Sequence record: MN850566.1
Length of the DNA stretch: 64,000 bases
Strand: one strand, 5' to 3'
DNA from: Escherichia phage garuso
Under the pieces are notes generated by a model, which was not told the DNA's origin, did not search any database, and saw nothing but the letters and a program-made list of their open reading frames with translations. This document shows positions 9,916 to 51,196 of the stretch, piece by piece; the stretch's first letter is position 1; the number at the start of each line of letters is the position of its first letter. The translations under genes and the position numbers were made by a program.

Positions 9916-12054
9916 ATAGATACCATTCTTAGCCTTCTTACGTCCTTTGCTAATCTCATGAAGAAGATTCTCATCCTGAGTAGCTCGACAAGTCAAGATG
10001 TCCTGCTCATCATTCAAGTTAAAGTAAATACTATTCAGTGTATGTGCATCAGTCCCTGAATAGACAACGTACAGGTCATTCTCAGAGTCATAGTGAAGGT
10101 ACTTATCAATCTCTGGGTTGAGATACTCATCGAAGTGTTTGCAGTAATAGCGTCCATCTTCTTGACGAGTAAACTCAATCTCTTCTTTACCTTGCGTTAC
10201 CGCTTTGGTGAACTCTTTATCACCCATAAAGTTACAAAGGAGAACTAGCTGGGCTGAGTTCATATCAACGGAGACTACGTTGGTTCCCTCTTCGCAAATC
10301 CACACCTCCCTCATAGGCGCTCCATAGACAGCAGCACCAGACGGTACGTTTACAATACCATATTGTGTCATACGTCCAGTTGAAGTGCCAAACACCATTG
10401 CACCAGCACTAAGGCGACCATCAGGACGAATCTGGTTCAACCAACCTTTTTCATCATCCTTTGAGTTCTCAATAGTTCTGCGTCGGTGCATCAAAGTATA
10501 GTACTTAGCAATCTTCTGTCCAAGCTCACCTTCAATCGTATCATAAGATGATTCAGTAAGTTTTGGTGAAGTACGGATTAAGCAAGGTTCAAGCAAATCT
10601 GTGTATTTCTTCACAGACCAGTTATGCTCGATGTACTGTACACCTTCATGTTCAACATAACTCAAACCACACCGCTCAACCATTTCCTGCCACTTAGGAT
10701 GCTTTGTAATCATCTTTTTATTGTCTTTGAAACGACAAACTTTGATAGGGCGACCATCTGAGTCTTTCTTGTAATTCCAGTCATCTGGAATCCAACCAAC
10801 TGATTTCAAGTAGTCTTTAACAACTGCTACCTGAGTCATACGAGAAACTTCAAACTCAATTGGTGTATATGGTGCATCAATCAAACCTGTGTAGCGACTT
10901 GACTCAAGTTCAAAGTGATTGACAACGTGACTGTTATAGTACTTCACAGTCTTGACTGTTTTTACTGGTTTCCAGTCTTTGCATTTTTTGCCAATCTTTG
11001 CATTCAACTCGTTGCAGATTGCACGAGCATCCTTCATCGCTACAAAACCCTCTTTGTACTCTTCACCAGTTACAGAGTTGGTTGGTGTATAGCAATTCCT
11101 TTTTTCAATGTTAAAAATCTTTGTAGTTGGCTTACCAAATGGTTTGATTTCATAAGTCTGCATCTCACCATTACGTACCTGCTGACGATACTTTGTCTTA
11201 GGGTACTTGGTAATTCTCTTCAGTCCATCTGCATGACCAAATGTTTCAACATACTCATTCCAAGCTTTTGCAAACTCTTCTCCAGTCACTTTACCTTTGG
11301 TCTTAATAGTTGGAGGTAGATGTGGTTCAACCTCTGAAGCAAGCTCATTAGTCAACTTGTCAAGTTCCTTTACATGGAACTCCATAAGCTCCTTATCAGC
11401 TTTCCAACCATTGATAGCTTGCTGGCTCATCCAGAAAGATGTCTCTTTAGCTCGCATGTAAGTCTCATAAGTGTCTATACCACACTTCTTAAGCTTGAGA
11501 TACTCGTTATCAAGTGCCCGTTTAGTTTTGGCATTAATACGGATATCTTCTACAACACGAGTGAAGATTTCTGCATTCCACACACCCCAATGTTCAATCT
11601 CTGGTTTACGGACACCGACACGAGCACCCCATGCAGCCAAACCATGAGCACCTTTATAACCCTTTGGGGTTGGCCTATCCATCCACTGAACACGAGACTG
11701 GATAAGAGAATCCTGAAAGAAATTACTCCACGGCTTACATTTTGGATTATCAAAGTTCCATAAATCAGGCGCAATGTGATTGAAAACCCACCAGTCATAG
11801 CCGAGACCATTATGGATGCAAAGACGTTTTGCCTTTAACGCAAATTCAACACCTTCACGTAAGCCGCCCTTGATGTACTTAGTGTACTTGTGACCGAGGA
11901 TAGGTTCATCTGTAAAGACCCATACAGGTGGCTCTTCATCATCAGATTTATAGTCTGCGAAAGCCATTACGTGCACTTTAGTGAACTCAAGGAGTAAACC
12001 ATCAGTTTCTGTATCACCAACCAAATGTAAGTTTTTAAAATCTACGTTTTCCAT
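9916..12054 (-). CDS. DNA polymerase (family A), 5' exon with 3'-5' exonuclease domain
   Basis: Exo I motif DTETDGL; motif A region DMNSAQL; ends in motif B ...RKKAKNGIY; start set at Met with GAGGGAG SD (ORF track 9871-12084). Confidence 0.8.
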
Positions 12055-41537: not shown

Positions 41538-42323
41538 ATGGGTATTGTAAAAATCATCAATGGTGATATCTTTGCTGCATTTGATAAAGGTAAGTTTGAC
41601 ATCATTGGTCATGGTTGTAACTGTATGAACCTAATGGGTGCAGGTATCGCTGATAAGATTTCTAAACTTTACCCAAAAGCATATGAGACCGATACAGAAG
41701 TTTATCTATATGCAGGCGGTATAGGCCACAAACCCTGTGAAAATTTACTAGGTAACTTCTCTGTAGCACGTTTAAAACAAGGCCGTATAGCTAACCTTTA
41801 CACTCAGCTTAAGACTGGTAAAGATGCCCGATACAGTGCTTTAGAGTCATCTTTGAAACAGCTTAACAGATACTGTGAAGTCAATCAGTTGAAGAAAGTC
41901 GGGTTACCTATGATTGGTGCAGGTATCGGTGGGCTAGACGCTCAAGCCGTCACAGTTATCATTAATCAGGTGATGAAGAGTGTAGATGTGTATCTGTATG
42001 TCTATGAAGGAGAGATGTACCACAAGTTACGCTCAGGTTGGAAGAACTACTGTGAACCAGAATACTTTGCAGGTGTAGTAACGTTCACAGACAATACAGT
42101 TACCCTCTTCAGACGAAGAAAAGGTAAGATACATCAAAGTAACCCTCCGGTTGAAAAGATGTCTCTAAGTAACGCTCTAGTTACCCACCTGTCGAAGAGC
42201 AATCACAGGATTGCAGTAACATTTGGTAGTGATGCAGACACTTATATCTATGCAAGAACTGATGAGGGTATCGAGACAGTTTTCTCTTCGCCAGAAGTTA
42301 CCTTCTTAGACGCAAAGAACTAA
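41538..42323 (+). CDS. macro-domain protein (putative ADP-ribose binding/hydrolase)
   Basis: N-terminal IVKIINGDIFAAFDKGKFDIIGHGCNCMNLMGAGIADKI and PMIGAGIGGLD fit macro-domain glycine-rich motifs. Confidence 0.55.
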   Translation: MGIVKIINGDIFAAFDKGKFDIIGHGCNCMNLMGAGIADKISKLYPKAYETDTEVYLYAGGIGHKPCENLLGNFSVARLKQGRIANLYTQLKTGKDARYSALESSLKQLNRYCEVNQLKKVGLPMIGAGIGGLDAQAVTVIINQVMKSVDVYLYVYEGEMYHKLRSGWKNYCEPEYFAGVVTFTDNTVTLFRRRKGKIHQSNPPVEKMSLSNALVTHLSKSNHRIAVTFGSDADTYIYARTDEGIETVFSSPEVTFLDAKN

Positions 42324-42389
42324 GAAACTCTGTAGAGTATTCACAATAAACTAAGCCTTTCTTATCTGGTAAATTTTTCAGGTAAGGAG

Positions 42390-42600
42390 GGCTTTTTCAT
42401 TTCAGAATTGTGCAGGTATATTTCTATAGAGAAATCTGTAGAGGAAATTTTGAACTCCAAAGAGAAAATTCATTTTCAAACTGTGCAGGTAATCTCCAAA
42501 GGGTTTTTTCATTTTCAAAACGTGCAGAGAAAAATCAGGTCGGGCAAGAAAAATCATTTTAGAATTGTGCAGGTAGGTGGGTGCAGGTGGGGATGTCGCC
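42390..42600 (+). repeat. array of four or five direct repeats TTTCATTTTCA(A/G)AA(C/T)TGTGCAGGTA (iteron-like)
   Basis: Copies near 42395, 42466, 42504, 42553 (last followed by GGTGGGTGCAGGTGG) in a 490 bp ORF-free region. Confidence 0.55.
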
Positions 42601-42752
42601 ATTTCTCACAAGGCTACCACATCTGGAAATAAAAGTCAACAGAAAAATTTGTAGCGGATTGAAAAATAATTCTTGATTGTAGTTCTGTTTTGTGGTAGTC
42701 GCGCGCACCCGTTTCATTACAATCTTTGCAAAAAATATTTTTAAAATTCCTA

Positions 42753-42781
42753 TTGACTCTTTGAGTATGGTTATCTAATAT
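42753..42781 (+). promoter_or_regulatory. sigma70-like promoter TTGACT-17-TAATAT
   Basis: Consensus-like -35/-10 upstream of first cassette gene. Confidence 0.5.
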
Positions 42782-42831
42782 TTGCATCAGACGGGCAATC
42801 AAGCCCACTTCCTAAACTGGAGATTCAAAAA

Positions 42832-43020
42832 ATGGCATCAAGAAAGATTAAAGTTGGCGATGAGATTAACATCAAGCACGAACACTCTTACAAAATGCTA
42901 ACTATACGCTCTTATAAGGTTTATCAGGTGGAAGCTATCCACAAAGATAACACTTTTTCCTTAAAAGGTTATAGCGAACGTTTCCCTGCTGAACTCTTTG
43001 AGAAATGGAGCGCGAAATAA
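42832..43020 (+). CDS. small early protein (cassette gene 1)
   Basis: Preceded by conserved CCTAAACTGGAGATTCAAAAAATG leader. Confidence 0.5.
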   Translation: MASRKIKVGDEINIKHEHSYKMLTIRSYKVYQVEAIHKDNTFSLKGYSERFPAELFEKWSAK

Positions 43021-43226
43021 TGCTTTACAGTCGTAAATTGATGGTTACAACTAACGTTAACACAAAGGTAAAACGTTTTTACATGCAAATTTGTGGCGTA
43101 TGGTCTAGAATATCAGAGGCTGACTATTGCAACTATGTAGAAACAGCTATAAACTCTAATTGCTACCTTACAAGAAATACTAAGAATTTTACAAGGCAAA
43201 CAGTGATTTACTATTACGATAAATAA
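43020..43226 (+). CDS. small early protein (cassette gene 2)
   Basis: ORF track 43005-43226; ATG 43020 has GGAG upstream. Confidence 0.4.
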   Translation: MLYSRKLMVTTNVNTKVKRFYMQICGVWSRISEADYCNYVETAINSNCYLTRNTKNFTRQTVIYYYDK

Positions 43227-43228
43227 AA

Positions 43229-43313
43229 AGTACTTTACATGGGGCTTAAAAGTCTGTAGAGTAAGCCCCAGATAAAGAGCTTTACCAACAACCTTAAACT
43301 AGGAGATTCAAAA
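43229..43313 (+). repeat. promoter/stem-loop cassette type A, copy 1
   Basis: TTTACA-17-TAGAGT around hairpin GGGGCTTA/TAAGCCCC, then AGATAAAGAGCTTTACC...TAAACTAGGAGATTCAAAAATG. Confidence 0.6.
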
Positions 43314-43697
43314 ATGGCTTATCGTGCACCGAAATTCATCAACAAAGACAACTTTCGCAAAGTACTGGAGAAGTCACTTGATGAGAATTTTAAAGGCAAC
43401 ATTATTGTTGTTCACTCGTTTAATTTCAAGTATGATATCAACGGGAATAAAATCAACCATTACACGGCGACAATGCTAGATGGTACTCTTTCAAGTGAAA
43501 AAGCCATTTTACATGCACTTGCTGGACGTGGTAAAAACCTGATAAAATGCGATAAGAGACGTTATCAGGGTGGCGCATATGGTTATGATGATGCTGTTTA
43601 TCATCTTGAAAATATGGGCTATAAAGTAGAAAAAGCTGGGGTATCGCAAATCATCGGGAGCGATGGTTATGTAACAATCTTCAAAATTAACGAATAA
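43314..43697 (+). CDS. small early protein (cassette gene 3)
   Basis: 127 aa ORF directly after cassette A1. Confidence 0.5.
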   Translation: MAYRAPKFINKDNFRKVLEKSLDENFKGNIIVVHSFNFKYDINGNKINHYTATMLDGTLSSEKAILHALAGRGKNLIKCDKRRYQGGAYGYDDAVYHLENMGYKVEKAGVSQIIGSDGYVTIFKINE

Positions 43698-43698
43698 A

Positions 43699-43783
43699 GT
43701 ACTTTACAAGGGGCTTATAGTTCGATAAAGTAAGCCCCAGATAAAGAGCTTTACCACTAAATCCTAAATTGGAGAACTTAAAA
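43699..43783 (+). repeat. promoter/stem-loop cassette type A, copy 2
   Basis: TTTACA-17-TAAAGT with hairpin GGGGCTTA/TAAGCCCC; conserved leader. Confidence 0.6.
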
Positions 43784-44041
43784 ATGGCTATTATCAAAAA
43801 CGTTGTAATTACCGCAAAGACTCGTGATGACGCTCGTATCATGGCTAAAAAGTTATGCGGAAAAGTGGTTGACAACGGAAAACAATCTGCTGTAAGGTGG
43901 GGCGTGAAGGTTGATAAACAGTTAACTTTAAAACGCAGTTCAAACAACCTTTTTAAAGGTGTAAAAACACTCGGTAAAGTGAACGTGTTCACTAAACAAG
44001 GTTACAAAATGCACTTATCTTTAACTGGCAATTTAATCTGA
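43784..44041 (+). CDS. small early protein (cassette gene 4)
   Basis: ATG 43784 after conserved SD GGAGA (ORF track 43769 starts at TTG). Confidence 0.5.
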   Translation: MAIIKNVVITAKTRDDARIMAKKLCGKVVDNGKQSAVRWGVKVDKQLTLKRSSNNLFKGVKTLGKVNVFTKQGYKMHLSLTGNLI

Positions 44042-44045
44042 TAAA

Positions 44046-44129
44046 GTACTTTACATGGGGTTTAAAAGTTGATATCTTAAGCCCCAGATAAAGAGCTTTA
44101 CCACTAAATCCTAAACTGGAGATTCAAAA
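44046..44129 (+). repeat. promoter/stem-loop cassette type A, copy 3
   Basis: TTTACA-17-TATCTT, hairpin GGGGTTTA/TTAAGCCCC, conserved leader. Confidence 0.6.
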
Positions 44130-44642
44130 ATGAAAACTGTAGACGCTACTTTTGAAGTTGTAAAAGAAAAATTCACCATTATCTATGAAGCGGTAAATTG
44201 CTACGAAGCAAGCCATAACCTTGATAATTGGAAGTTTACAGATGACCATCAAGGCGGCGTGACTGTTAAAAATCCTAACTATCAGCATAATGCATTTAAA
44301 TATGCAATCCCTTTGCATTACAGCCTTAAACAGCTTTCAAGTGACTATGCAAAACAAGGCCGGGAAAATCCATCAAAAGAGGCTTACATCAGCTTACAAA
44401 AAGAACTAGAAAGAGATTTAGAAGCTTCAGAGTATAACATTGCCGCGAAAGTTGTAGATGCAAACGGTAAAACGGTTTTAGACAGCTTTTATATTGGTTA
44501 CGCTTTCGATTGGTGCTATAGTGACGGTGAGGATTTAGAAGATAGACTAAAAGAAGAGGTGAACAATTCAGACGCAGAAACTGAAGTATTAGAACGTTTG
44601 GAATCGTTGAAAGACTCAGTGATGAATATCTTTAAGAACTAA
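44130..44642 (+). CDS. small early protein (cassette gene 5)
   Basis: 170 aa ORF after cassette A3. Confidence 0.5.
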   Translation: MKTVDATFEVVKEKFTIIYEAVNCYEASHNLDNWKFTDDHQGGVTVKNPNYQHNAFKYAIPLHYSLKQLSSDYAKQGRENPSKEAYISLQKELERDLEASEYNIAAKVVDANGKTVLDSFYIGYAFDWCYSDGEDLEDRLKEEVNNSDAETEVLERLESLKDSVMNIFKN

Positions 44643-44648
44643 ATAGAT

Positions 44649-44734
44649 TTCTTTACACGGGGTTATCAAGCTGGTAAGATAGCCCCAGATAAAGAGATTT
44701 ATCAAATAAAGCCCTTAAACTAGGAGATTCTAAA
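44649..44734 (+). repeat. promoter/stem-loop cassette type A, copy 4 (divergent)
   Basis: TTTACA-17-TAAGAT, hairpin GGGGTTAT/ATAGCCCC (compensatory change vs other copies). Confidence 0.55.
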
Positions 44735-45031
44735 ATGAAATTATCAAATCAAGTGCGTGAAAATCTGAGCAAATTACTCAACAAAATTGATTTTATCGAG
44801 ACATCAAGAAATAATCATGATGTTATGGAATGGTTGCACGGCAAAATAAAAGGCCGTCGCGTAGTGATTTGCTTATGGAATAGTTGCAGGGAGTATAAAA
44901 AACCTGTATTGCAAGTAAATATTTATGATGATACTTTTAAAAGTCCAGTAAAGTCTAAAAGTGACTTATTAGAATCTTATGAGATAACTGTAAGTGGCAA
45001 AGTATCACGTAAAGAGGAAACACCATGTTAA
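44735..45031 (+). CDS. small early protein (cassette gene 6)
   Basis: 98 aa ORF. Confidence 0.5.
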   Translation: MKLSNQVRENLSKLLNKIDFIETSRNNHDVMEWLHGKIKGRRVVICLWNSCREYKKPVLQVNIYDDTFKSPVKSKSDLLESYEITVSGKVSRKEETPC

Positions 45032-45357
45032 TGACTGGTATCACTGCAATCATTGCCATTTTCGCGCTATATAAGGCATATAAAGCCTATAATCTAGCAA
45101 ATAAGGCAATCACGCAACAGGTTAGCAATAACCTTGTAGAAAGCTTTCTAGGACGTCTCAGTGATGAGCAAATAAAGCGGCTAGAGATGAGCTTCAGATA
45201 TAAAGCCAAAACCTATCAGATAAGTGACATCTTCAAAGATGATTTTCAGTTAGTTGATGATTATAATTCTCTGATAAATGCTTTAAACATCAGTGACTTG
45301 AAAGACTATCATGCTGTAATTGTTCAAGAGTTGAGCAAACGAAAACAAAATTCTTGA
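45025..45357 (+). CDS. small early membrane protein (cassette gene 7)
   Basis: 110 aa, N-terminal hydrophobic segment; start overlaps previous stop. Confidence 0.45.
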   Translation: MLMTGITAIIAIFALYKAYKAYNLANKAITQQVSNNLVESFLGRLSDEQIKRLEMSFRYKAKTYQISDIFKDDFQLVDDYNSLINALNISDLKDYHAVIVQELSKRKQNS

Positions 45358-45445
45358 CACTGGTTTTTAGATAGATTAAATTACACATCAACGGGGAGGG
45401 AATGACCTTCCCCACTAAATAAAGTCCTAAACTGGAGATTCTAAA
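45354..45445 (+). repeat. promoter/stem-loop cassette type B, copy 1
   Basis: TTGACA-17-TAAATT, then hairpin GGGGAGGG-AATGA-CCTTCCCC, then ACTAAATAAAGTCCTAAACTGGAGATTCTAAAATG. Confidence 0.6.
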
Positions 45446-45718
45446 ATGTATACTACTAACAACGGTCGCACTTTAAATGTCACACTACGTCACTATGTAG
45501 ATGGTGTCATGCACTTTGAAGACTTACAAGCTGAACAACATATCTTAGATTGGCAAGTCGCAGGACTCCAAAAAACTGCTACCGGATACGGTAAAAAGAT
45601 TCCAACCAGTTGGAAAGTACACTATGAAGGCCGTTTGCGCAGAATTTATCAGGATGTGCAAAGCAATAGTGCATCGAGTTACATTATAGTAAAAGGTAAA
45701 AAACTGCATTTAGTGTAA
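45446..45718 (+). CDS. small early protein (cassette gene 8)
   Basis: 90 aa ORF. Confidence 0.5.
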   Translation: MYTTNNGRTLNVTLRHYVDGVMHFEDLQAEQHILDWQVAGLQKTATGYGKKIPTSWKVHYEGRLRRIYQDVQSNSASSYIIVKGKKLHLV

Positions 45719-45719
45719 A

Positions 45720-45803
45720 GTACTTTACAGGGGGCTTATAGTTCGATAAAGTAAGCCCCAGATAAAGAGCTTTACCACTCAATCCTAAATTGGAGATTCT
45801 AAA
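45720..45803 (+). repeat. promoter/stem-loop cassette type A, copy 5
   Basis: Near-identical to copy 2. Confidence 0.6.
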
Positions 45804-46208
45804 ATGGCTATTAATAACCGTGAATTATCAATCTTAAAAGCACGCTTGACCGTTAATCGAATCAATATCATGACGTCATCAGCGCCTGATGAAACATTGC
45901 ACAACATTATCGGAAAGATTCAAAGCGTTATCTTAGACGTTGAAAACGTAAAAAGTTCATTGGCTGACGTTGCAGCAGGTATCACGCTAGACGGTGCGCA
46001 ATATGAAATGGCTGACATGTTAGGCAAATCGAAGGTAATGAATAAAGAGCTTGATTTAAAAATGTTTCGATTTGCCGTGAAAGTATGGTTATCTGTCGAG
46101 TATGACGCTAATTTTGCAATCGCTGATTTCTTTGCCACTTGGTTACAACGTAATTTGACAAATCATGATTTTCGTGATGTCTGTGATGCAATTTATGCAG
46201 AACTCTAA
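45804..46208 (+). CDS. small early protein (cassette gene 9)
   Basis: 134 aa ORF. Confidence 0.5.
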   Translation: MAINNRELSILKARLTVNRINIMTSSAPDETLHNIIGKIQSVILDVENVKSSLADVAAGITLDGAQYEMADMLGKSKVMNKELDLKMFRFAVKVWLSVEYDANFAIADFFATWLQRNLTNHDFRDVCDAIYAEL

Positions 46209-46216
46209 AAATTTTG

Positions 46217-46309
46217 TTGACACTGGTTTTTAGATAGATTAAATTACACATCAACGGGGAGGGAATGACCTTCCCCACTAAATAAAGTCCTAAACTGGAG
46301 ATTCTAAAA
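46217..46309 (+). repeat. promoter/stem-loop cassette type B, copy 2
   Basis: Near-identical to 45354-45445 over about 90 nt. Confidence 0.6.
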
Positions 46310-46513
46310 ATGGCTATTATTAACGGCTTAACCATTGAAACTACACACATCAAAGATATTAAAGTTGGTGATATAGTCCTTTCCCACGGCGTAGAAAAAA
46401 CTGTCACTGCAAAGGATATCAAAGAGGATTCTTTCATGGGTAGGACTCTCTTCGGTGATTCTTATTGCTTAGGTTATCTTGCAGTTTTAAAAGTTGTCAA
46501 AAATAACAAATAA
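46310..46513 (+). CDS. small early protein (cassette gene 10)
   Basis: 67 aa ORF. Confidence 0.45.
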   Translation: MAIINGLTIETTHIKDIKVGDIVLSHGVEKTVTAKDIKEDSFMGRTLFGDSYCLGYLAVLKVVKNNK

Positions 46514-46514
46514 A

Positions 46515-46599
46515 GTACTTTACAGGGGGCTTGGAAGTTGATATCTTAAGCCCCAGATAAAGAGCTTTACCACTAAATCCTAAACTGGAGATTCAAAAA
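46515..46599 (+). repeat. promoter/stem-loop cassette type A, copy 6
   Basis: TTTACA-17-TATCTT with hairpin GGGGCTT.../...AAGCCCC. Confidence 0.6.
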
Positions 46600-47142
46600 A
46601 TGAAATGCTTTCACGGTACTACTCAAGAAAACTTTATCAACCTGATTAATAATGGTGATAAGCCATCAGGTGCATGGAATTGTTCGGATATGGATGGCAA
46701 TTTTTACGTATACCCAGAAAATAAAATCTATGGTGACGATGAGGAAGAGATAGTATCCGAAGGTATTCAACAGGCGTTAGGAAATGCCACTATCACGGCA
46801 GCTTTCCAGATGAAAACCCAAAACATTGTTATCTTGGAACTTGATATTCCAGAGGACGAATTAAATGATGATTATTCTTGTGATAATATGTCTGGCGTAG
46901 CAAGTTTTACAGAATACTTCGATTTAAATTGGATTAAAAAGGTTTACGTAACCGAGTTTAATGCGATGTTTTCGCCTTTTTGTCTTCCTTCATTGGATAA
47001 CCCAAATTTAAACTATCTTGATGAGTCTCTGGAGCTTCTTGCTAAAAGCGTTCAACAGTCGGACAGTATTCAGGTTTTTTGTGACATCATGGATACACTG
47101 GCAGGAAACATCGCAGAAGAGGATTTAAAGAGCTTTTTTTAA
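46600..47142 (+). CDS. small early protein (cassette gene 11)
   Basis: 180 aa acidic ORF. Confidence 0.5.
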   Translation: MKCFHGTTQENFINLINNGDKPSGAWNCSDMDGNFYVYPENKIYGDDEEEIVSEGIQQALGNATITAAFQMKTQNIVILELDIPEDELNDDYSCDNMSGVASFTEYFDLNWIKKVYVTEFNAMFSPFCLPSLDNPNLNYLDESLELLAKSVQQSDSIQVFCDIMDTLAGNIAEEDLKSFF

Positions 47143-47173
47143 AAACCTATGCAATCACCTTATAAACACTAAT

Positions 47174-47196
47174 CAGCCCCTTGTAGGGGCTTTTAG
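47174..47196 (+). terminator. rho-independent terminator
   Basis: CAGCCCC-TTGTA-GGGGCT followed by TTTT. Confidence 0.5.
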
Positions 47197-47208
47197 GGGG
47201 CTTAAATC

Positions 47209-47442
47209 ATGCTTACAACCGTTTACCTCATCCTTTCCATCTGTAATGGTCATTCATGCGATTTTAAAGGGCTTGAAGAGTTTACAGGAAGTAAAGAAAA
47301 TGCTATTCAAGTTTGCCAGATAGCACGGCAAGACTATCCCGCAAGTGATGATATACAATGCTACTTTAAGACAGAAGATAAAGACGGCATCTATTTTGAC
47401 AGCGTTGACGGTCAATATGAAATTATCATTGAAAAAGACTAG
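47209..47442 (+). CDS. small early protein (cassette gene 12)
   Basis: 77 aa ORF. Confidence 0.45.
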   Translation: MLTTVYLILSICNGHSCDFKGLEEFTGSKENAIQVCQIARQDYPASDDIQCYFKTEDKDGIYFDSVDGQYEIIIEKD

Positions 47443-47457
47443 ACAAGCCTGATAAAA

Positions 47458-47532
47458 GTCTGTAAATTGTCAATCAACGGGGAGGGAATGACCTTCCCCA
47501 CTAAATGAAGTCCTAAACTGGAGATTCTAAAA
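47458..47532 (+). repeat. promoter/stem-loop cassette type B, copy 3
   Basis: GTCTGTAAATTGTCAATCAACGGGGAGGGAATGACCTTCCCCACTAAAT... conserved leader. Confidence 0.55.
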
Positions 47533-47874
47533 ATGGCTTATGTAACCGTAATTACCGATAAAGCTGGCGCATCTTGGTCAACTCAGGTTAGTGATAAGAT
47601 GTCGCCTATGCAGTGCCTAAAATACTTTGAACAGTGGAACAAAGGCGAGGACACAAGCCCCTTTCACGTAATGCAGATTATTCATGTAGACAATGAAGGG
47701 AAGAAAACAACTCTGAATAGTGAGTACTACGCAAGCCGTTTTGAAACGAGAAGTAAAGCAATGAAGCTCTTACGTGAGGCCGGATATGGTCACATTGCCG
47801 CGATAATCTGGGATGACCTTCTAAAAAGTCAACGTATCAGCTATGTAAAGCCTGAAAAAATATTCATCAGTTAA
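47533..47874 (+). CDS. small early protein (cassette gene 13)
   Basis: 113 aa ORF. Confidence 0.5.
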   Translation: MAYVTVITDKAGASWSTQVSDKMSPMQCLKYFEQWNKGEDTSPFHVMQIIHVDNEGKKTTLNSEYYASRFETRSKAMKLLREAGYGHIAAIIWDDLLKSQRISYVKPEKIFIS

Positions 47875-48035
47875 TCAATAACTTACAAAAAACTTTTAAA
47901 AAAGTGTTGACAATACCCCTTGACATTGGTAACTTTGTTCGAGGGGGTTTATCTAAAAGGGATTCACTTAAAAGATTCTTTATAGATAAGCTTAAAAATT
48001 GCTTGCAATCAGCTATCAAAACAAGTAAATTACTA

Positions 48036-48093
48036 ATCAACGGGAGGGATGACCTTCCCCACTAAATAAAATCCTTAAACTAGGAGAGTCAAA
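48036..48093 (+). repeat. promoter/stem-loop cassette type B, copy 4 (degenerate)
   Basis: TCAACGGGAGGGATGACCTTCCCCACTAAATAAAATCC...GGAGAGTCAAAATG. Confidence 0.5.
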
Positions 48094-48624
48094 ATGAACA
48101 AGTTTAAAGCTATCAACTTCATTCGTTCAAATGCTGTAATGTCAAAACCTGTAAAAGACACATACGAATTTCGCTGCAATGGGGTACACTTTGCAACCAT
48201 CACTAAGTCAGAAAACGGGGCTTATTACATTCATCGCCGTAATGTTTCTACTGTTGTAGTCTCTCACTTTATGCAAGCTGTAGCGGAATTATTACCGTTA
48301 TTCTTAGAGATTTACTTAGATGAGTGCAAAAACGTTCGTAACCACGTTAAAAACCTTTTAAACGGTTATAAAATGGCTTATGAACGTTCTATCAAGTCCT
48401 TAAACAAGTTTTATAAAGCCCCTGTAAATACTGTTTCAATGGCTTACAGTGTAAGCGGTGAGTTGGTTAGTCTCTTCGAAGTGGAAGAAATCGAACTATA
48501 TAACTCACGTCCTAGCGGTTACTCTAAGACACTAGGAGAGGGCTTATCTTTCAATATCAAGAACTTAGAAAAAACTTTAAAAGATATTGAAAAAGATATT
48601 GACGAGACAATCAAAAGTCTGTAA
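48094..48624 (+). CDS. small early protein (cassette gene 14)
   Basis: 176 aa ORF. Confidence 0.5.
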   Translation: MNKFKAINFIRSNAVMSKPVKDTYEFRCNGVHFATITKSENGAYYIHRRNVSTVVVSHFMQAVAELLPLFLEIYLDECKNVRNHVKNLLNGYKMAYERSIKSLNKFYKAPVNTVSMAYSVSGELVSLFEVEEIELYNSRPSGYSKTLGEGLSFNIKNLEKTLKDIEKDIDETIKSL

Positions 48625-48703
48625 ATTGTCAATCAACGGGGAGGGAATGACCTTCCCCACTAAATAAAACCCTTAATCAACTTCCTAAACTGGAGATTCT
48701 AAA
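48617..48703 (+). repeat. promoter/stem-loop cassette type B, copy 5
   Basis: Same GTCTGTAAATTGTCAATCAACGGGGAGGGAATGACCTTCCCC block as copy 3. Confidence 0.55.
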
Positions 48704-48952
48704 ATGGCTACTATCCGCGCAACTGTTAACGAATTCGGCTTCTACTCTCTGGACGTTAAATTTGACCTTGTAGGTACTGATAACACCTTTGAAATGGTGA
48801 AAGGCCTTATCAGCCAGACCATCAGTGACTACAACCCCTCTGATGAATTCTGGAAAGAAACAAAACAGGAAGTTCTCAAAGAGGGTTATACATACCACTA
48901 CTGGGGTGAAAAAATTGTCTCCCTGTACTACGACAAAAAAGGCACTAACTAA
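48704..48952 (+). CDS. small early protein (cassette gene 15)
   Basis: 82 aa ORF; last gene of plus block. Confidence 0.5.
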   Translation: MATIRATVNEFGFYSLDVKFDLVGTDNTFEMVKGLISQTISDYNPSDEFWKETKQEVLKEGYTYHYWGEKIVSLYYDKKGTN

Positions 48953-48990
48953 ACGCCGCAACGGGGCTAAATAGCCCCAGATACCTTTAC

Positions 48991-49017
48991 AGCCCCTTTC
49001 CCATAGGGGCTTTTTTA
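48991..49017 (+). terminator. rho-independent terminator ending the plus-strand block
   Basis: AGCCCCT-TTCCCAT-AGGGGCT followed by TTTTTT. Confidence 0.6.
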
Positions 49018-49019
49018 CG

Positions 49020-50550
49020 TCTTATCAAATCCCTTATACAACCCTTTCCCTTTCCTTTCCAGAATCTTATCAGACCTTAAAAAGCAATAACTCTATAGTC
49101 TACTCTATAGCCTTTTATCAAATCAACTTAAATATAAGCCCATAACCCGAAAGGGAAGGGCAACCGTTTAAACGCTCTATAAAGCTCTATAACAGCCTTA
49201 TCAACCTAACTTAAGGGATTGCATTAACTCACCCTAAAAAGCCCTTTATAAAGCTTCCCAGAGACTTAAAAGAATCTTATAAGGGTGTAAGCTTTATCAT
49301 CTCGTTAGCTATCTTGTGAACTACTAAACAAGCCCCTTGATAGTAACTGAAAAGTATGTTATAGGGGCTTTAAAGTTACTTTGAAGTAGCTTAAAAGTTA
49401 CGTAAATGCTAGCCCCCTTAACATTTTCTTAACAATTTCTTAACAATCCCTACATAGTTATGCTTTTAAGACACTTGTTAGCAACTTGTTAGCCCCTTGT
49501 TAAATCTCTGTTAAGACCACGTAAAAGCCTTGTAAGAACCTTTGACATAGCCTTAAAAGCTCCTGTAAAGCCCTATAAAGAGCTATCTGTACAGTTGGGG
49601 GGTAAATACTAGGAAGAGACTTAAAAGGGGTTATACAGAGCTATACAGAGCTTTTAAGAGGTATGTTTAAAGAATCACTAAGAAAGGAAAGGGAACGATA
49701 AGAAAAGAGTAGTGACCATGTTAATAGCTTGTTAAAAAGATTAAACACTTGTTAGAGACTTGTTAATTATCTTAACAAAATAACTCTTAACATTTAACTA
49801 CTTAGCTCTTGTTAGTCATCTGTTAAGATTCTGTAAAGCCTATTCAGCACTTGTTAAGAAACTGTTACACCCTTGTTAGTTCTGTTAAGAAACTGTTAAG
49901 ACCTTTGAAGAGTTGTTAAGAAGATGTGAGAACTGTTAAGAGATTGTTAAGGATATTTTAAAATTTTGCAAAGTACTTGTAAGGGAGCTGTTAAGGGCTA
50001 CCAAGCAGATATACATCCTAGACAGATATTTTTCAGTTCCTTCAAAGACCCTAAAAAATGACTTGATAGTCCTATTTTATAAAAATTTTAAAATTCTGAA
50101 TAATTACCTATACAGTCTTTTAAAAATACAGGTAGAAACAGGCTTATAAGATACCTTGTTAGTACCGTGTTAGACCTTGTGAGATAAGGTCTGTAAAGAT
50201 ATTCCTGTTAAGTTTGTTAAAACAGTCTATATAGAGGCTTAGTAATACCTAGTGAACACCTATAGAGGGTATCATAGCTAACCTAGAGATTAAGAGGTGT
50301 ATAGGAGCTTCTAAGAGGGTATAGAGAGATGGTTAAGGTGATTGTATAGGTTGTTTAGAAGGCTTGTTAGAAGAGTGTTTAGAAGGGCTATACAGAGGGG
50401 CTATTAAGACCACTAGATAGTTACTAAGATACTATATAGTACTATATAACTATATAGAGAGTAAGATTAAGAAGGTTGTTAAGAAGGATGTTAAGAAGGA
50501 TAGATATTTTATTCACATATGATGGTGACCCAGAGGTTGGGACAACCGAT
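49020..50550. repeat. ORF-free region with more than 20 TGTTA(A/G) repeats phased at about 11 bp
   Basis: e.g. CTTGTTAGCAA-CTTGTTAGCCC-CTTGTTAAATC-TCTGTTAAGAC near 49470-49515 and TGTTAAGAAACTGTTACACCCTTGTTAGTTCTGTTAAGAAACTGTTAAGA near 49850-49900; no ORF of 60 aa or more on either strand. Confidence 0.7.
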
Positions 50551-50551
50551 G

Positions 50552-50584
50552 AAATTTTATAAAAATTAAAAAGCCCCCAACTAA
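50552..50584 (-). terminator. rho-independent terminator ending the minus-strand block
   Basis: Minus strand AGCCTCC-TTAGTT-GGGGGCT followed by TTTTTAATTTTT. Confidence 0.5.
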
Positions 50585-50602
50585 GGAGGCTCTTAAGATA
50601 TT

Positions 50603-51196
50603 TTAAATCAGTGTTTCCAGAACTGTCTTCAGTGATGACTTGGTTGTCTGATAAAAATGAGTAAATCCATTGTTGTTATCAAACACCTGCATCATGATAT
50701 CATCTCCCTTGATTGGGTATACTCGGATATCATAGTGGAACCCATTAAAGACAGCAGAACCATTACAGAATGCACTAAAGTCATCCACTGAGATATACTC
50801 TTCATGACCTGTGATTTTTATGCAAACACCTTTACTCGGTCTCTTAGGGTTGATATCCTCCATCACAGACATACTCTGTCCACCAAGAGATATCATAGTG
50901 ACCACTTTACGGTTCTTCTGTCTAAAGTACATCTTAACTTTCTGTAAAGTGTCTTCATAGAACGGATAAGACTTCTCTACAAAGATGCCTTCTAATGGCT
51001 CTTTGCCGTTTACAATACCTCTGGTATGACGTACTGAGAAGATAAGTTGCTCTAGTATGTCAAGGCTTTCTTCGGAGAGTGCTTCCCGAATATCATTCCA
51101 GTCAAGGACTAGGTAGTTGCCTTCAACTTCTTTTAAGTTATCTTTTTTCATATCTATCACACCATTATCGTAAAACTTGGTAATCTGGGGCTGCAA
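50603..51196 (-). CDS. hypothetical protein
   Basis: 197 aa ORF. Confidence 0.5.
   Translation of the reverse strand: MQPQITKFYDNGVIDMKKDNLKEVEGNYLVLDWNDIREALSEESLDILEQLIFSVRHTRGIVNGKEPLEGIFVEKSYPFYEDTLQKVKMYFRQKNRKVVTMISLGGQSMSVMEDINPKRPSKGVCIKITGHEEYISVDDFSAFCNGSAVFNGFHYDIRVYPIKGDDIMMQVFDNNNGFTHFYQTTKSSLKTVLETLI

Follow-up and report, generated by a model that had tools for sequence, protein, structure and literature searches.

The 64-kb window (the whole stretch of DNA analysed, 64,000 nucleotides) is Felixounavirus genome sequence, to which phage allfine is 96% identical, and its array at 42753-48960 raises the question of why 15 small genes, all on the + strand within about 6 kb, should for the most part be placed directly 3' of one of two repeated modules. 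The Felix O1 paper and the wV8 record had already noted the repeats but gave no explanation for them. An earlier note on this DNA had described two families, type A in six copies and type B in five, and a scan of the window recovered both, with their features where the note had placed them. The array contains 12 intergenic cassettes: the six of type A, the five of type B, and a third kind, a B-like first promoter at 42753, behind which g1 lies. The statement that a cassette precedes each gene held for most of them; the exceptions were g2 and g7, which overlap the preceding gene, and g12, which follows an intrinsic terminator. The ORFs, called unrelated small proteins, indeed belong to a different PHROG family each, none of the 15 families having a known function, and no Pfam or NCBIfam domains were found in the 15 array ORFs. 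The genes are as follows.

42832-43020, + strand: g1, 62 aa, phrog_15633
43005-43226, + strand: g2, 73 aa, phrog_5293, overlapping g1
43314-43697, + strand: g3, 127 aa, phrog_4495, absent from Felix O1
43784-44041, + strand: g4, 85 aa, phrog_5089, absent from Felix O1
44130-44642, + strand: g5, 170 aa, phrog_4190, absent from wV8; Felix O1 homologue ORF16
44735-45031, + strand: g6, 98 aa, phrog_4401
45025-45357, + strand: g7, 110 aa, phrog_4375, overlapping g6
45446-45718, + strand: g8, 90 aa, phrog_3436
45804-46208, + strand: g9, 134 aa, phrog_4327; Felix O1 homologue ORF20
46310-46513, + strand: g10, 67 aa, phrog_3623
46600-47142, + strand: g11, 180 aa, putative ADP-ribosyltransferase-fold protein
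47209-47442, + strand: g12, 77 aa, phrog_4640, without its own promoter cassette
47533-47874, + strand: g13, 113 aa, phrog_4318
48094-48624, + strand: g14, 176 aa, phrog_4725; Felix O1 homologue ORF22
48704-48952, + strand: g15, 82 aa, phrog_4559

The cassettes share a sigma70-like -35 hexamer and a TAnnnT -10 hexamer separated by exactly 17 nt, together with a G-rich/C-rich hairpin and a leader of standard form with GGAG. There were 5 exact copies of the type A core (TAAGCCCCAGATAAAGAGCTTTACC) versus 0 expected, 4 of the type B core versus 0, and 8 occurrences of the leader (CCTAAACTGGAGATTC) versus 0.48, in every case on the + strand only and within 42811-48699. No cassette was found in the rest of the window or elsewhere in the complete allfine genome, and that genome likewise contained no leader outside the array. 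The 20 nt 5' of the -35 were 79% A+T, compared with a background of 61-63%, and the -35 and -10 hexamers matched only 9-10 of 12 consensus positions. Architecture, conservation, maintained pairing, and recombination junctions within cassettes are read directly from the sequences; that the promoters are active, where transcription starts, and what each hairpin does at the molecular level we infer. The type A cassettes were located as follows.

43227-43313, + strand: A1; hairpin 43227-43283, -35 TTTACA 43234-39, -10 TAGAGT 43257-62, SD 43302; MFE -22.4, z -4.7
43695-43783, + strand: A2; hairpin 43695-43753, -35 43703-08, -10 TAAAGT 43726-31, SD 43771; z -4.7
44040-44129, + strand: A3; hairpin 44040-44102 with U.G at stem position 5, -35 44050-55, -10 TATCTT 44073-78, SD 44118; z -5.0
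44643-44734, + strand: A4, a divergent allele; hairpin 44643-44702, -35 44652-57, -10 TAAGAT 44675-80, SD 44723; MFE -25.2, z -6.1
45715-45803, + strand: A5; hairpin 45715-45775 with 24-nt arms, -35 45724-29, -10 TAAAGT 45747-52, SD 45792; MFE -25.3, z -4.7
46511-46599, + strand: A6; hairpin 46511-46569, -35 46519-24, -10 TATCTT 46542-47, SD 46587; z -3.6

In type A, TTTACA is followed after 17 nt by TAGAGT, TAAAGT, TATCTT, or TAAGAT. The 8-bp hairpin ascribed to this family is present where it was described, but it is only the tip of an inverted repeat of about 60 nt, which has three helices and arms of 22-24 nt and encloses the whole promoter. The -35 block pairs with a conserved AGATAAAGAGCTTTAC block; the -35 itself falls within the middle stem and the internal loop, the -10 within the apical loop, and the predicted start at the 3' base of the upper stem, so that the hairpin would form only on RNA coming from upstream.

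This hairpin is conserved in four Ounavirinae genera. The same three-helix fold was obtained for 59 of 59 unique type A copies (-18 to -28 kcal/mol), and z-scores for the copies in the window ranged from -3.6 to -6.1. In the type A alignment (alignment A1), 96.5% of pair positions were paired, compared with 53-57% when the partners were slid by one column, and 0 of 500 shuffles gave the observed value, a control that overstates significance because the cassettes are related by descent and gene conversion. Three pairs had changed on both sides: one from G-C to U-A in each of the four Erwinia copies, and two in the lower stem, from G-C to U-A and from U-A to A-U. A structure-aware alignment added two further pairs in A4-type copies; pairing is kept, with two-sided changes at 3-5 pairs only. 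The compensatory stem change reported for A4 is real (GGGGTTAT/ATAGCCCC), and such changes occur in both its upper and its lower stem. Read on the + strand, the non-Watson-Crick departures comprised about 70 G.U versus 2 A.C positions, counts that stem from few independent events. Folding energies of the two strands were near-equal (mean difference, sense minus antisense, -0.25 kcal/mol; 33 versus 26 copies), and the assignment to the RNA strand therefore rests on the wobble counts. Among 43 distinct copies from four genera, the CTTTACA block was invariant but for one base, including the unpaired CA of the internal loop. In the -10, the T and A were invariant and the last T almost invariant, in contrast to the three intervening bases and the remainder of the loop, which varied. 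The spacer was 17 nt in most of these copies and 18 nt in two from Erwinia.

The type B cassettes and the first cassette were located as follows.

42753-42831, + strand: first cassette (type C, B-like); -35 TTGACT 42753-58, -10 TAATAT 42776-81, hairpin GGGCAATCAAGCCC 42793-42806, SD GGAG 42819
45354-45445, + strand: B1; -35 TTGACA 45354-59, overlapping the g7 stop codon, -10 TAAATT 45377-82, hairpin GGGGAGGGAATGACCTTCCCC 45393-45413, SD 45434
46217-46309, + strand: B2; -35 TTGACA 46217-22, -10 TAAATT 46240-45, hairpin 46256-46276, SD 46297; counterpart annotated 'promoter' in the AYO145A record
47440-47532, + strand: B3; -35 TAGACA 47440-45, containing the g12 stop codon, -10 TAAATT 47463-68, hairpin 47479-47499, SD 47520
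48003-48093, + strand: B4; -35 TTGCAA 48003-08, -10 TAAATT 48026-31, hairpin GGGAGGGATGACCTTCCC 48042-48059 with a stem one pair shorter, SD 48083; z -1.7
48599-48703, + strand: B5; -35 TTGACG 48599-604, inside g14 together with the spacer, -10 TAAATT 48622-27, with the g14 stop codon within it, hairpin 48638-48658, SD 48692

The pattern TTGACA-17-TAAATT given for type B was correct for TAAATT in all five copies, but TTGACA is found only in B1 and B2 (TAGACA in B3, TTGCAA in B4, TTGACG in B5); TAnnnT is kept at 17-nt spacing, and the -35 and spacer sequences differ. The first cassette has the same layout, with CA(G)AC, hairpin, and CCTAAACTGGAG. In both, the hairpin starts 10-11 nt 3' of the -10, about 3 nt after the predicted start in the conserved CAAC, and this distance would put the type B hairpin at the mRNA 5' end. 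The 72 type B copies (36-37 sequence variants) included the stems GGGGAGGG/CCTTCCCC, GGGAGG/CCTCCC, GGGGC/GCCCC, GGGGG/CCCCC, and GGGA/TCCC, among others, and in all variants the hairpin occupied one fixed place directly 3' of CA(A/GA)C. The mean z was -4.3, and in 26 of 36 variants the sense strand gave a more stable fold than the antisense.

Terminators and other promoter-like elements were located as follows.

42353-42394, + strand: intrinsic terminator of the upstream operon, 17-pair stem, then T run; annotated in the AYO145A and wV8 records
47175-47195, + strand: internal intrinsic terminator AGCCCCTTGTAGGGGCTTTT between g11 and g12; annotated terminator in wV8
47907-47935, + strand: extra promoter-like site, TTGACA-17-TAACTT, spanned by a CCCCT...AGGGG inverted repeat; 'promoter' in the AYO145A record
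48961-49017, + strand: degenerate type A remnant (GGGGCTAAATAGCCCCAGATACCTTTACA), then intrinsic terminator 48991-49011 and T run

The gene 5' of the 42353 terminator (41538-42323) has a Macro domain match, and the terminator at 48991-49011, annotated in the AYO145A and Mordin records, ends the array. The stem between g11 and g12 covaries among relatives (e.g., GGCCCATACAGGGCC); the terminator scan reported this hairpin on the - strand only. No U run is present 3' of the type A or type B hairpins, and classical intrinsic termination is therefore not predicted for either.

The PeSL (promoter-early stem-loop) of T4-type phages is described as a sigma70-like promoter, AT-rich upstream, with a stem-loop (GGGG...CCCC) lying between the hexamers or over them and a 3' SD and ATG, clustered among small ORFans (PMC2839356); the model is also given in PMC4122927. 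The resemblance to these elements that the earlier note had proposed was matched point by point, every sequence-level feature of the description being present in the Felix O1-like cassettes as well. We consider it likely that the locus serves a Felix O1-like phage as an accessory array of early genes, with standardised expression cassettes working like T4-type PeSLs. Each cassette would combine a promoter for host sigma70 RNA polymerase (AT-rich stretch, -35, 17-nt spacer, and TAnnnT -10), a G-rich/C-rich RNA hairpin, and a uniform A-rich leader with a GGAG ribosome-binding site. The hairpin of type B and of the first cassette would be the 5'-terminal stem-loop of its own mRNA and most likely guards against 5'-end-dependent decay; that of type A, on the upstream RNA, would most likely act between cistrons, as an attenuator, a processing site, or a stabiliser of 3' ends, insulating neighbouring units.

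No phage-encoded RNA polymerase is present (PMC3185647). In Felix O1, four array homologues, including ORF16, ORF20, and ORF22, peak at 5 min after infection by RT-PCR, a crude assay in which neighbouring array genes differ in time class, irrespective of cassette type (PMC3185647). This 5-min peak and the modelled, putative ADP-ribosyltransferase fold of g11 make up the support for a tentative host-takeover or anti-defence label. In the literature searched, no transcript 5'-end or 3'-end data were found for any Ounavirinae phage.

It is rather unlikely that the array is instead expressed as one read-through early transcript from the 42753 promoter, with type A serving primarily as RNase III-type processing sites and the -35 and -10 minor or incidental. 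The model here is the T7 early region with its intercistronic RNase III sites: a cut in the internal loop would keep the hairpin attached to the upstream mRNA and place the downstream 5' end near the start of the promoter model. The type A hairpin, with 19-21 pairs in three helices and a symmetric internal loop, is compatible in size and shape with RNase III substrates; given the predicted start at its 3' foot, it is possible only on read-through RNA, and only two intrinsic terminators interrupt the array, so that read-through is expected. Processing leaves unexplained, however, the unpaired invariant CA of TTTACA and the invariant -10 T, A, and T in a variable loop, and type B cassettes lack the long helix. 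Processing and promoter functions of type A are not mutually exclusive.

Comparison of the array in 13 genomes directly supported the proposed modular shuffling: the differences were indels of whole gene-plus-cassette units, with units gained, lost, and reordered. In one case of a gene with different cassette types, g13, behind B3 here, lies behind type A in wV8, Mordin, and SUSP1; g1 is at another array position in Mordin; in Mordin and SUSP1 an unrelated gene encoding 82 aa takes the place of g10, with the same two cassettes on either side; and gene order is rearranged in the Erwinia array. Cassette alleles at one locus differ among phages that are 90-96% identical, and one rare stem variant recurs at several positions within a single genome (warpig, Bas63). 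The SUSP1 cassette 5' of g14 has promoter and leader without a hairpin, which is therefore not indispensable. Two Felix O1 junctions were aligned, and each has a chimeric cassette, made up of parts of the two that border, in the window, the block missing there, with the recombination junctions lying inside cassettes. Judged from these alignments, such junctions are the signature of PeSL-type modular shuffling. The comparisons support the view that array genes in related phages were gained, lost, and reordered by recombination at cassettes. Sequences of 50-100 nt repeated a dozen times in direct orientation are, for that reason, substrates for homologous recombination, which would delete, insert, swap, and re-order gene-plus-cassette units while the expression signals stay intact.

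That the hairpins are DNA-level recombination signals, with a recombination or structure-specific nuclease acting at extruded or single-stranded GGGG...CCCC in site-directed exchange, was an idea raised by the PeSL authors for these motifs (PMC2839356) and appears improbable here. Junctions do lie inside cassettes and the G-rich/C-rich orientation is constant, but the junction intervals are the longest shared stretches, as plain homologous recombination predicts, no integrase or dedicated recombinase is annotated beside the array, and the bias toward G.U favours the transcribed sense strand, although + strand single-stranded DNA is also compatible with it. If the inverted repeats were DNA operators, a dimeric phage or host regulator at the palindromes over the type A -35, -10, and +1 would shut off or time the early promoters. 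A palindrome overlapping the core promoter is the arrangement classically seen with repressors; in A5, the upstream block (T)GTAAAGTACTTTAC(A) is a perfect palindrome; and the allfine record lists, at another place in that genome, a small 'transcriptional regulatory protein'. This remains very doubtful, however, as stem sequences differ within one genome (A4 versus the others) and between genera with pairing kept, asymmetric G.U positions are common and conserved for whole genera, the A4-type upstream block is non-palindromic and unlike the downstream block in direct orientation, yet complementary, and type B stems are free to vary in sequence and length. Hardly credible is a selfish miniature palindromic repeat (MITE- or Correia element-like) spread into gaps, with promoter-like hexamers arising by chance: the type A core is about 60 nt with long terminal inverted repeats, many copies, and a strictly intergenic location, and Mordin has two tandem cores with no gene between, but all copies share a single orientation and a single register relative to stop codon and ATG, none lies outside the array in the 87-kb genome, no gap was seen polymorphic for the core alone, what varies is whole gene-plus-cassette units, the crossovers lying inside cassettes, and neither transposase nor target-site duplication was seen.

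Two features are new: the type A hairpin as a three-helix structure of about 60 nt around the whole promoter, and the placement of the type B hairpin 10 nt past the -10, at the predicted 5' end of the mRNA. On the preferred reading, that of standardised early-gene expression cassettes, the cassettes would be PeSL-like elements outside the T4-type phages.

The row of 15 small + strand genes (g1-g15) and the two cassette families proposed in the earlier note were recovered by sequence reading, ORF listing, and a repeat finder, each cassette being an intergenic promoter, a hairpin, and a leader with an SD. The repeat finder returned six type A copies (A1-A6, with A4 a divergent allele) and five type B copies (B1-B5). 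A cassette had been claimed before every gene; this holds except for four genes that have neither a type A nor a type B cassette, namely g2 and g7, which overlap their upstream genes, g12, which follows an intrinsic terminator, and g1, which has a B-like promoter at 42753 (the first cassette). The array and its landmarks are located as follows.

41538-42323: Macro-domain 'phosphatase' gene, upstream landmark of the array
42353-42394: intrinsic terminator after the Macro-domain gene, upstream of the array
42753-48960, + strand: array, g1-g15
~47175-47195: intrinsic terminator in the g11-g12 gap
48991-49011: intrinsic terminator, downstream landmark, followed by ~1.6 kb that is gene-free

A sequence search with 42700-49000 matched 255 phage records, among which the informative matches were all Felix O1-like myoviruses of the subfamily Ounavirinae and the best was allfine (96% identity over 100% of the query). 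Two other records, 'Staphylococcus phage SA1' (GU169904, 147 kb) and a Campylobacter phage record, contain a Felix O1-type array at 92% identity and are probably chimeric or mislabelled. The 12 cassettes lie within 6.2 kb, and profile and covariance-model searches of the window and of the complete allfine genome found none outside the array. Elsewhere in the 64-kb window the type A and type B cores had 0 copies (0 expected by chance), and the common leader CCTAAACTGGAGATTC occurred in 8 copies, all within the array, versus 0.48 expected. An Rfam scan of 42000-51000 assigned no family, the sole match being a chance Phe_leader (E 0.82) outside the array.

The encoded proteins (62-180 aa by ORF listing and sequence reading) fall into 15 different PHROG families, every one of unknown function, in agreement with the claim that the ORFs between cassettes are unrelated. 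Searches of the 15 proteins against Pfam gave no domain (a single sub-threshold DUF3139 match) and against NCBIfam gave zero matches, and a PDB sequence search with six of them found zero relatives. The only functional lead among the 15 came from a fold search with g11 (180 aa), for which a structure model was obtained with a pLDDT of 77.8 and a pTM of 0.78. Its Foldseek neighbours were almost all ADP-ribosyltransferases, including TreX/TreTu and pertussis toxin (E 6e-3 to 3e-2), and the conserved residues comprise a nearly invariant His5, Tyr36/38, and an invariant Glu80. From this model g11 appears to be an ADP-ribosyltransferase, and its predicted fold together with the upstream Macro-domain gene would fit a host-modification role.

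Several other sequence features were noted in and around the array. The segment from the upstream terminator to the first array promoter holds, at 42388-42572, 4-5 copies of a ~28-nt repeat, TTTTTCATTTTCAAAACTGTGCAG, placed 39-47 nt apart. In the g11-g12 gap (47143-47208), the terminator stem covaries among relatives, being AGCCCCTTGTAGGGGCT in the window and GGCCCATACAGGGCC in mio and AYO145A, and g12 is without its own promoter and has an SD of the AGGGGG type. A degenerate type A remnant, GGGGCTAAATAGCCCCAGATACCTTTACA, is located at 48961-48985 between g15 and the final terminator and may be the scar of a lost unit. The gene-free ~1.6 kb after the array (49000-50650) contains many CTTGTTA(A/G) and CTGTTAAG motifs with 11-nt spacing (49461-49518, 49735-49781, and 49806-49960, the last with a 31-nt super-period), as well as the inverse motif TTAACAA at 49415-49455. 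This pattern looks iteron-like, as in a replication origin or a protein-binding array; in relatives the segment is annotated as 'repeat_region', and several GenBank records begin or end there.

Conservation of the type A promoter was assessed by aligning 43 distinct copies with MAFFT, the sources being Felixounavirus, Mooglevirus, Suspvirus, and Kolesnikvirus (Erwinia phages). Across these four genera the CTTTACA block was invariant except for one base in one copy. The first two bases of the -10 hexamer were invariant and its last T was present in 42 of the 43 copies, while the middle three bases and the remaining loop were variable (TAGAGT, TAAAGT, TATCTT, TAAGAT, TATGAT, TAGGAT, TACAGT, TAGTAT, and TACCAT). 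The spacer was 17 nt, or 18 nt in two Erwinia copies. As a sequence pattern, this is what is expected of a sigma70 -10 element, and pairing does not explain the conservation of the two hexamers, as neither the CA of TTTACA nor the TA of the -10 is paired. In type B the TAnnnT hexamer is kept at 17-nt spacing and the -35 hexamers and spacers differ; TTGACA, which had been reported as the -35 of this family, was confirmed in two of the five copies only. The hexamers match the sigma70 consensus at 9-10 of 12 positions with 17-nt spacing, and A+T makes up 79% of the 20 nt before the -35, versus a background of 61-63%. On these sequence grounds the cassette promoters are considered likely to be real. 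Felix O1 is described as a phage without its own RNA polymerase, and by RT-PCR its ORFs 16, 20, 21, and 22, which are the homologues of g5, g9, g13, and g14, peak at 5 min, with other array genes peaking at 25 min (PMC3185647). An additional promoter-like site, TTGACA-17-TAACTT with a CCCCT...AGGGG inverted repeat across it, was found at 47907-47935, ~90 nt upstream of B4, so that g14 may have tandem promoters.

An SD of sequence GGAG is positioned 8-10 nt before the ATG in all 12 cassettes. It is always preceded by its own complement (e.g., in the leaders at 45425-45437 and 44715-44728), giving UCC-UAAACU-GGA(G) or a variant, UCCU-UAAACU-AGGA(G), that differs by a paired insertion. The complement is kept with other sequences in the Erwinia phage leaders (CCUU-AUA-AAGG and CCUC-AAA-GAGG). 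The leader thus appears to form a weak hairpin of 3-4 bp, conserved across the subfamily, in which the SD would be sequestered.

The earlier note had described an 8-bp type A hairpin; a hairpin is present, but it is much larger, with arms of 22-24 nt according to an inverted-repeat scan. A conserved block downstream of the small hairpin, AGATAAAGAGCTTTAC, is complementary to an upstream block, (G)TAAAGTACTTTACA, in which the -35 and the preceding gene's stop codon lie. The 59 unique type A copies from 13 genomes all fold to one shape with energies of -18 to -28 kcal/mol. Its base is a lower stem of 5-7 pairs; above a 1x1 mismatch comes a 5-pair middle stem, and above a 2x2 or 3x3 internal loop an upper stem of 8-10 pairs, closed by an 11-13-nt loop that contains the -10. 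The six window copies had z-scores of -3.6 to -6.1 relative to dinucleotide shuffles. In the 43-copy alignment, standard pairs occupied 96.5% of pair positions, falling to 53-57% when the 3' partners were slid by one column, and none of 500 shuffles reached the observed pairing or covariation score.

Pairing is kept through two-sided changes at upper-stem position 3 (U-A in place of G-C in each of the four Erwinia copies), at lower-stem column 10-61 (G-C in 32 copies and U-A in 7), and at column 6-65, and a structure-aware alignment gave two further two-sided swaps in the A4-type upper stem. From alignment A5 only per-pair counts were used, since + and - strand matches are mixed in it and its whole-structure statistics are not usable as they stand. 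In Mordin, copies that share one upper-stem allele have either G-C or U-A in the lower stem, and the lower-stem covariation is therefore not mere linkage to the cassette allele. Read on the + strand, the non-Watson-Crick positions comprise ~70 G.U versus 2 A.C, one U.G being kept in 38 of the 43 copies and another fixed in three genera; the excess of G.U over A.C favours a structure on the sense strand, that is, in RNA. Strand-specific stability was not supported by the folding energies, which are nearly equal for sense and antisense (mean difference -0.25 kcal/mol), so the sense strand is favoured by the wobble counts alone. Folding as RNA is accordingly held with moderate confidence, the events being few. 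More divergent type A copies were sought with the pattern CTTTACA-N33-40-WGATAAAGARCTTT in IMG/VR, and the 7 contigs retrieved were chance matches throughout, none having a GC hairpin or an nhmmer match.

The distance from the -10 to the transcription start is usually 7-8 nt. The A of AGATAAAG, at the upper stem's 3' foot, would be the first nucleotide of type A transcripts, and the cassette's own mRNA would therefore be without the 5' arms. The type A 5' UTRs are predicted to be unstructured, and a local 5' hairpin was rejected as a general feature of them because only the A4 allele forms one. The long hairpin could then form only on read-through RNA from upstream, where its shape, an imperfect helix of ~20 bp with an internal loop, would fit a candidate RNase III processing site; the type B stem, of 6-8 bp, does not fit. 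One speculative extension is that type A is dual-coded, acting on DNA as a sigma70 promoter and on read-through RNA as a processing or insulation hairpin cleaved at the promoter's own start, and that with type B it makes up an exchange system. We regard this as unlikely. If it were true, each downstream gene would receive the same 5' UTR whether its mRNA was locally initiated or cut from a longer transcript, and the two types would amount to a subfamily-wide, integron-like 'plug-and-play' exchange of host-takeover and anti-defence genes for which no integrase is needed.

In each of the 72 copies covered, the hairpin of type B and of the first cassette begins 10-11 nt after the -10 and directly follows a conserved CA(A/GA)C. 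These copies represent 36-37 sequence variants whose stems, of 3-8 pairs, differ in sequence, the 5' side always being G-rich. The mean z-score was -4.3, and in 26 of 36 variants the sense strand folded more stably than the antisense. The hairpin would sit ~3 unpaired nt from the predicted 5' end of the cassette's own mRNA, which is the geometry of a protective 5'-terminal stem-loop (about 2-4 unpaired nt). A cassette hairpin is dispensable in at least one unit, given that the SUSP1 cassette upstream of the g14 homologue (~11630-11708) has TTGCAA-17-TATAGT and the standard leader but no hairpin. A mini-ORF in the type B hairpin (ATGACCTTCCCCACTAAATAA) was rejected because its ATG is missing from many variants.

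Two other functions were considered for the cassettes. As Rho-independent (intrinsic) terminators, the hairpins fail on the U run: what comes next is AGATAAAG in type A and ACTAAATA in type B, neither with a U run, and they are therefore not classical terminators; a terminator scanner did not report them. The likeness to integron attC sites lies in the small, unrelated, dispensable genes with imperfect inverted repeats between them, but R''/L''-L'/R' boxes (RYYYAAC...GTTRRRY), with their R'/R'' core sites, are absent at the cassette ends, no integrase is annotated in the allfine genome, and the cassettes, unlike those of integrons, bring their own promoters.

Recombination between cassettes was examined using gene and cassette maps of 13 genomes, in which the differences are whole units. 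At least g1, g3, g4, g5, g10, g11, and g12 are each missing from some viable relative. Felix O1 is without {g3-A-g4-A} and {g10-A-g11-g12-B}; wV8 is without {g5-A} and has {x48-A} and {x23-B} as extra units; and in Mordin and SUSP1 an 82-aa gene unrelated to g10 takes its place, flanked by the same B and A cassettes. The gene at the head of the array in the window, g1, is between a B and an A cassette in Mordin, and the homologues in the Erwinia phage occur in a different order (g5, g8, g11, g6, g12, g14). Cassette type can also change at a locus, g13 being preceded by B in the window and by A in wV8, Mordin, and SUSP1, and g3 by A or by a B-like cassette depending on the phage.

Cassette junctions were noted in Felix O1 and Mordin. 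The Felix O1 g2-g5 cassette equals window A1 in its 5' part, loop allele included, and window A3 in its leader, the switch lying inside the common core TAAGCCCCAGATAAAGAGCTTTACCA, and the g9-g13 cassette combines the promoter half of B2 with the g13 side. Mordin (2100-2215 of its sequence) carries a tandem pair of type A cores, spaced 56 nt apart and gene-free between, whose junction, CTTTACCAACTTTACA, looks like a fusion of one cassette's downstream block to the -35 block of the following cassette. Different loop alleles occur at the same locus in phages that are 90-96% identical, and rare stem variants recur at several positions of one genome (e.g., GGGGCGGG in warpig and Bas63), which indicates gene conversion. 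The modular shuffling suggested in the earlier note is supported by the whole-unit differences and the chimeric Felix O1 junctions.

The closest known system is the promoter-early stem-loop (PeSL) of T4-type phages, a repeated intergenic motif of hyperplastic regions in which indels end within motifs and mini-circles arise by exchange between motifs (PMC2839356; PMC4122927). The cassettes were compared with the PeSLs of RB49/phi1, T4/PST, and KVP40/nt-1 (Arbiol 2010, PMC2839356; Comeau 2014, PMC4122927), and the likeness that had been proposed extends to every sequence-level criterion. Both are repeated intergenic modules beside small ORFans in an accessory region; both have an AT-rich stretch, sigma70-like -35 and -10 hexamers, an SD and ATG, and a GGGG...CCCC stem-loop between or over the hexamers or just downstream; and in both, indels and replacements among close relatives end inside modules. 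The cassettes differ in belonging to Ounavirinae rather than T4-like phages, in forming two tight sequence families only instead of many loose ones, in the extension of the type A stem-loop to a three-helix hairpin in which the beginning of the 5' UTR pairs with the -35 block, and in a type B hairpin predicted inside the transcript. For PeSLs, promoter, terminator, and mini-circle activities have been demonstrated, whereas the cassettes are compared at the level of sequence. A blastn search with the cassettes returned essentially only Ounavirinae-type records and no T4-type phage. With no detectable shared sequence and a different subfamily, the cassettes are, at the level of sequence comparison, a PeSL analogue and not a homologue.

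Partial likenesses to other systems were also noted. The host-takeover module of Bacillus phage SPO1, as reportedly described by Stewart et al. in 1998, comprises about a dozen operons with 24 small early genes in total, each operon said to have a strong early promoter and a strong RBS. It resembles the array as a dense row of small early genes, mostly of unknown function, beside a genome landmark, each unit having a separate promoter of host type and a strong, standardised ribosome site; the SPO1 promoters, however, are not described in conserved hairpins or as recombination modules, and host and lineage are unrelated. The RNase III processing hairpins between T7 early genes, reportedly from the work of Dunn & Studier, resemble type A only, as ~20-bp imperfect intercistronic hairpins with an internal loop on read-through RNA among small early genes; the T7 sites are promoter-free, the T7 early region being driven from left-end promoters, and type A cleavage is only a candidate. 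The ompA 5' UTR hairpin, which Emory, Bouvet & Belasco are said to have shown in 1992 to stabilise mRNA, is comparable to the type B hairpin as predicted, with ~3 nt ahead of it on the mRNA, the geometry needed against 5'-end-dependent RNase E. Lambdoid 'morons' are likewise self-contained promoter-gene units, but they are not bounded by a common repeated sequence.

The repeats themselves have been observed previously. In the Felix O1 paper (PMC3185647), direct repeats of 57 bp (type A) and 39 bp (type B) appear uncommented and are left off the promoter list, and the wV8 record annotates DR_1 to DR_9, on which the text of the wV8 paper is silent; in the AYO145A record one type B -35/-10 is labelled 'promoter'. 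A literature search found no paper linking the Felix O1 repeats to PeSLs, describing the extended hairpin, or mapping Ounavirinae transcripts, and neither a transcript map nor a promoter study for Felix O1-like phages. New here are the subfamily-wide three-helix hairpin around a promoter, the predicted 5'-terminal hairpin of type B, and the explicit chimeric junctions.

Overall, the interpretation in the earlier note was essentially right, and the array is probably a PeSL-like set of self-contained early expression units and at the same time a scaffold for recombination; the role assigned to each hairpin is held with less confidence. Felix O1-type phages are used in Salmonella typing, food biocontrol, and therapy, and about 250 public genomes annotate this block only as 'hypothetical proteins' and the repeats only as unexplained direct repeats. 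The array is where to seek the accessory genes that separate near-identical phages, such as the apparent ADP-ribosyltransferase beside the Macro-domain gene, and the cassettes are natural insertion points with expression signals included. The predicted three-helix hairpin, kept across the subfamily, offers a concrete and directly testable RNA structure. PeSL-style shuffling, so far known only from T4-type phages, is extended to an unrelated myovirus subfamily, which suggests that the mechanism is general and convergent.
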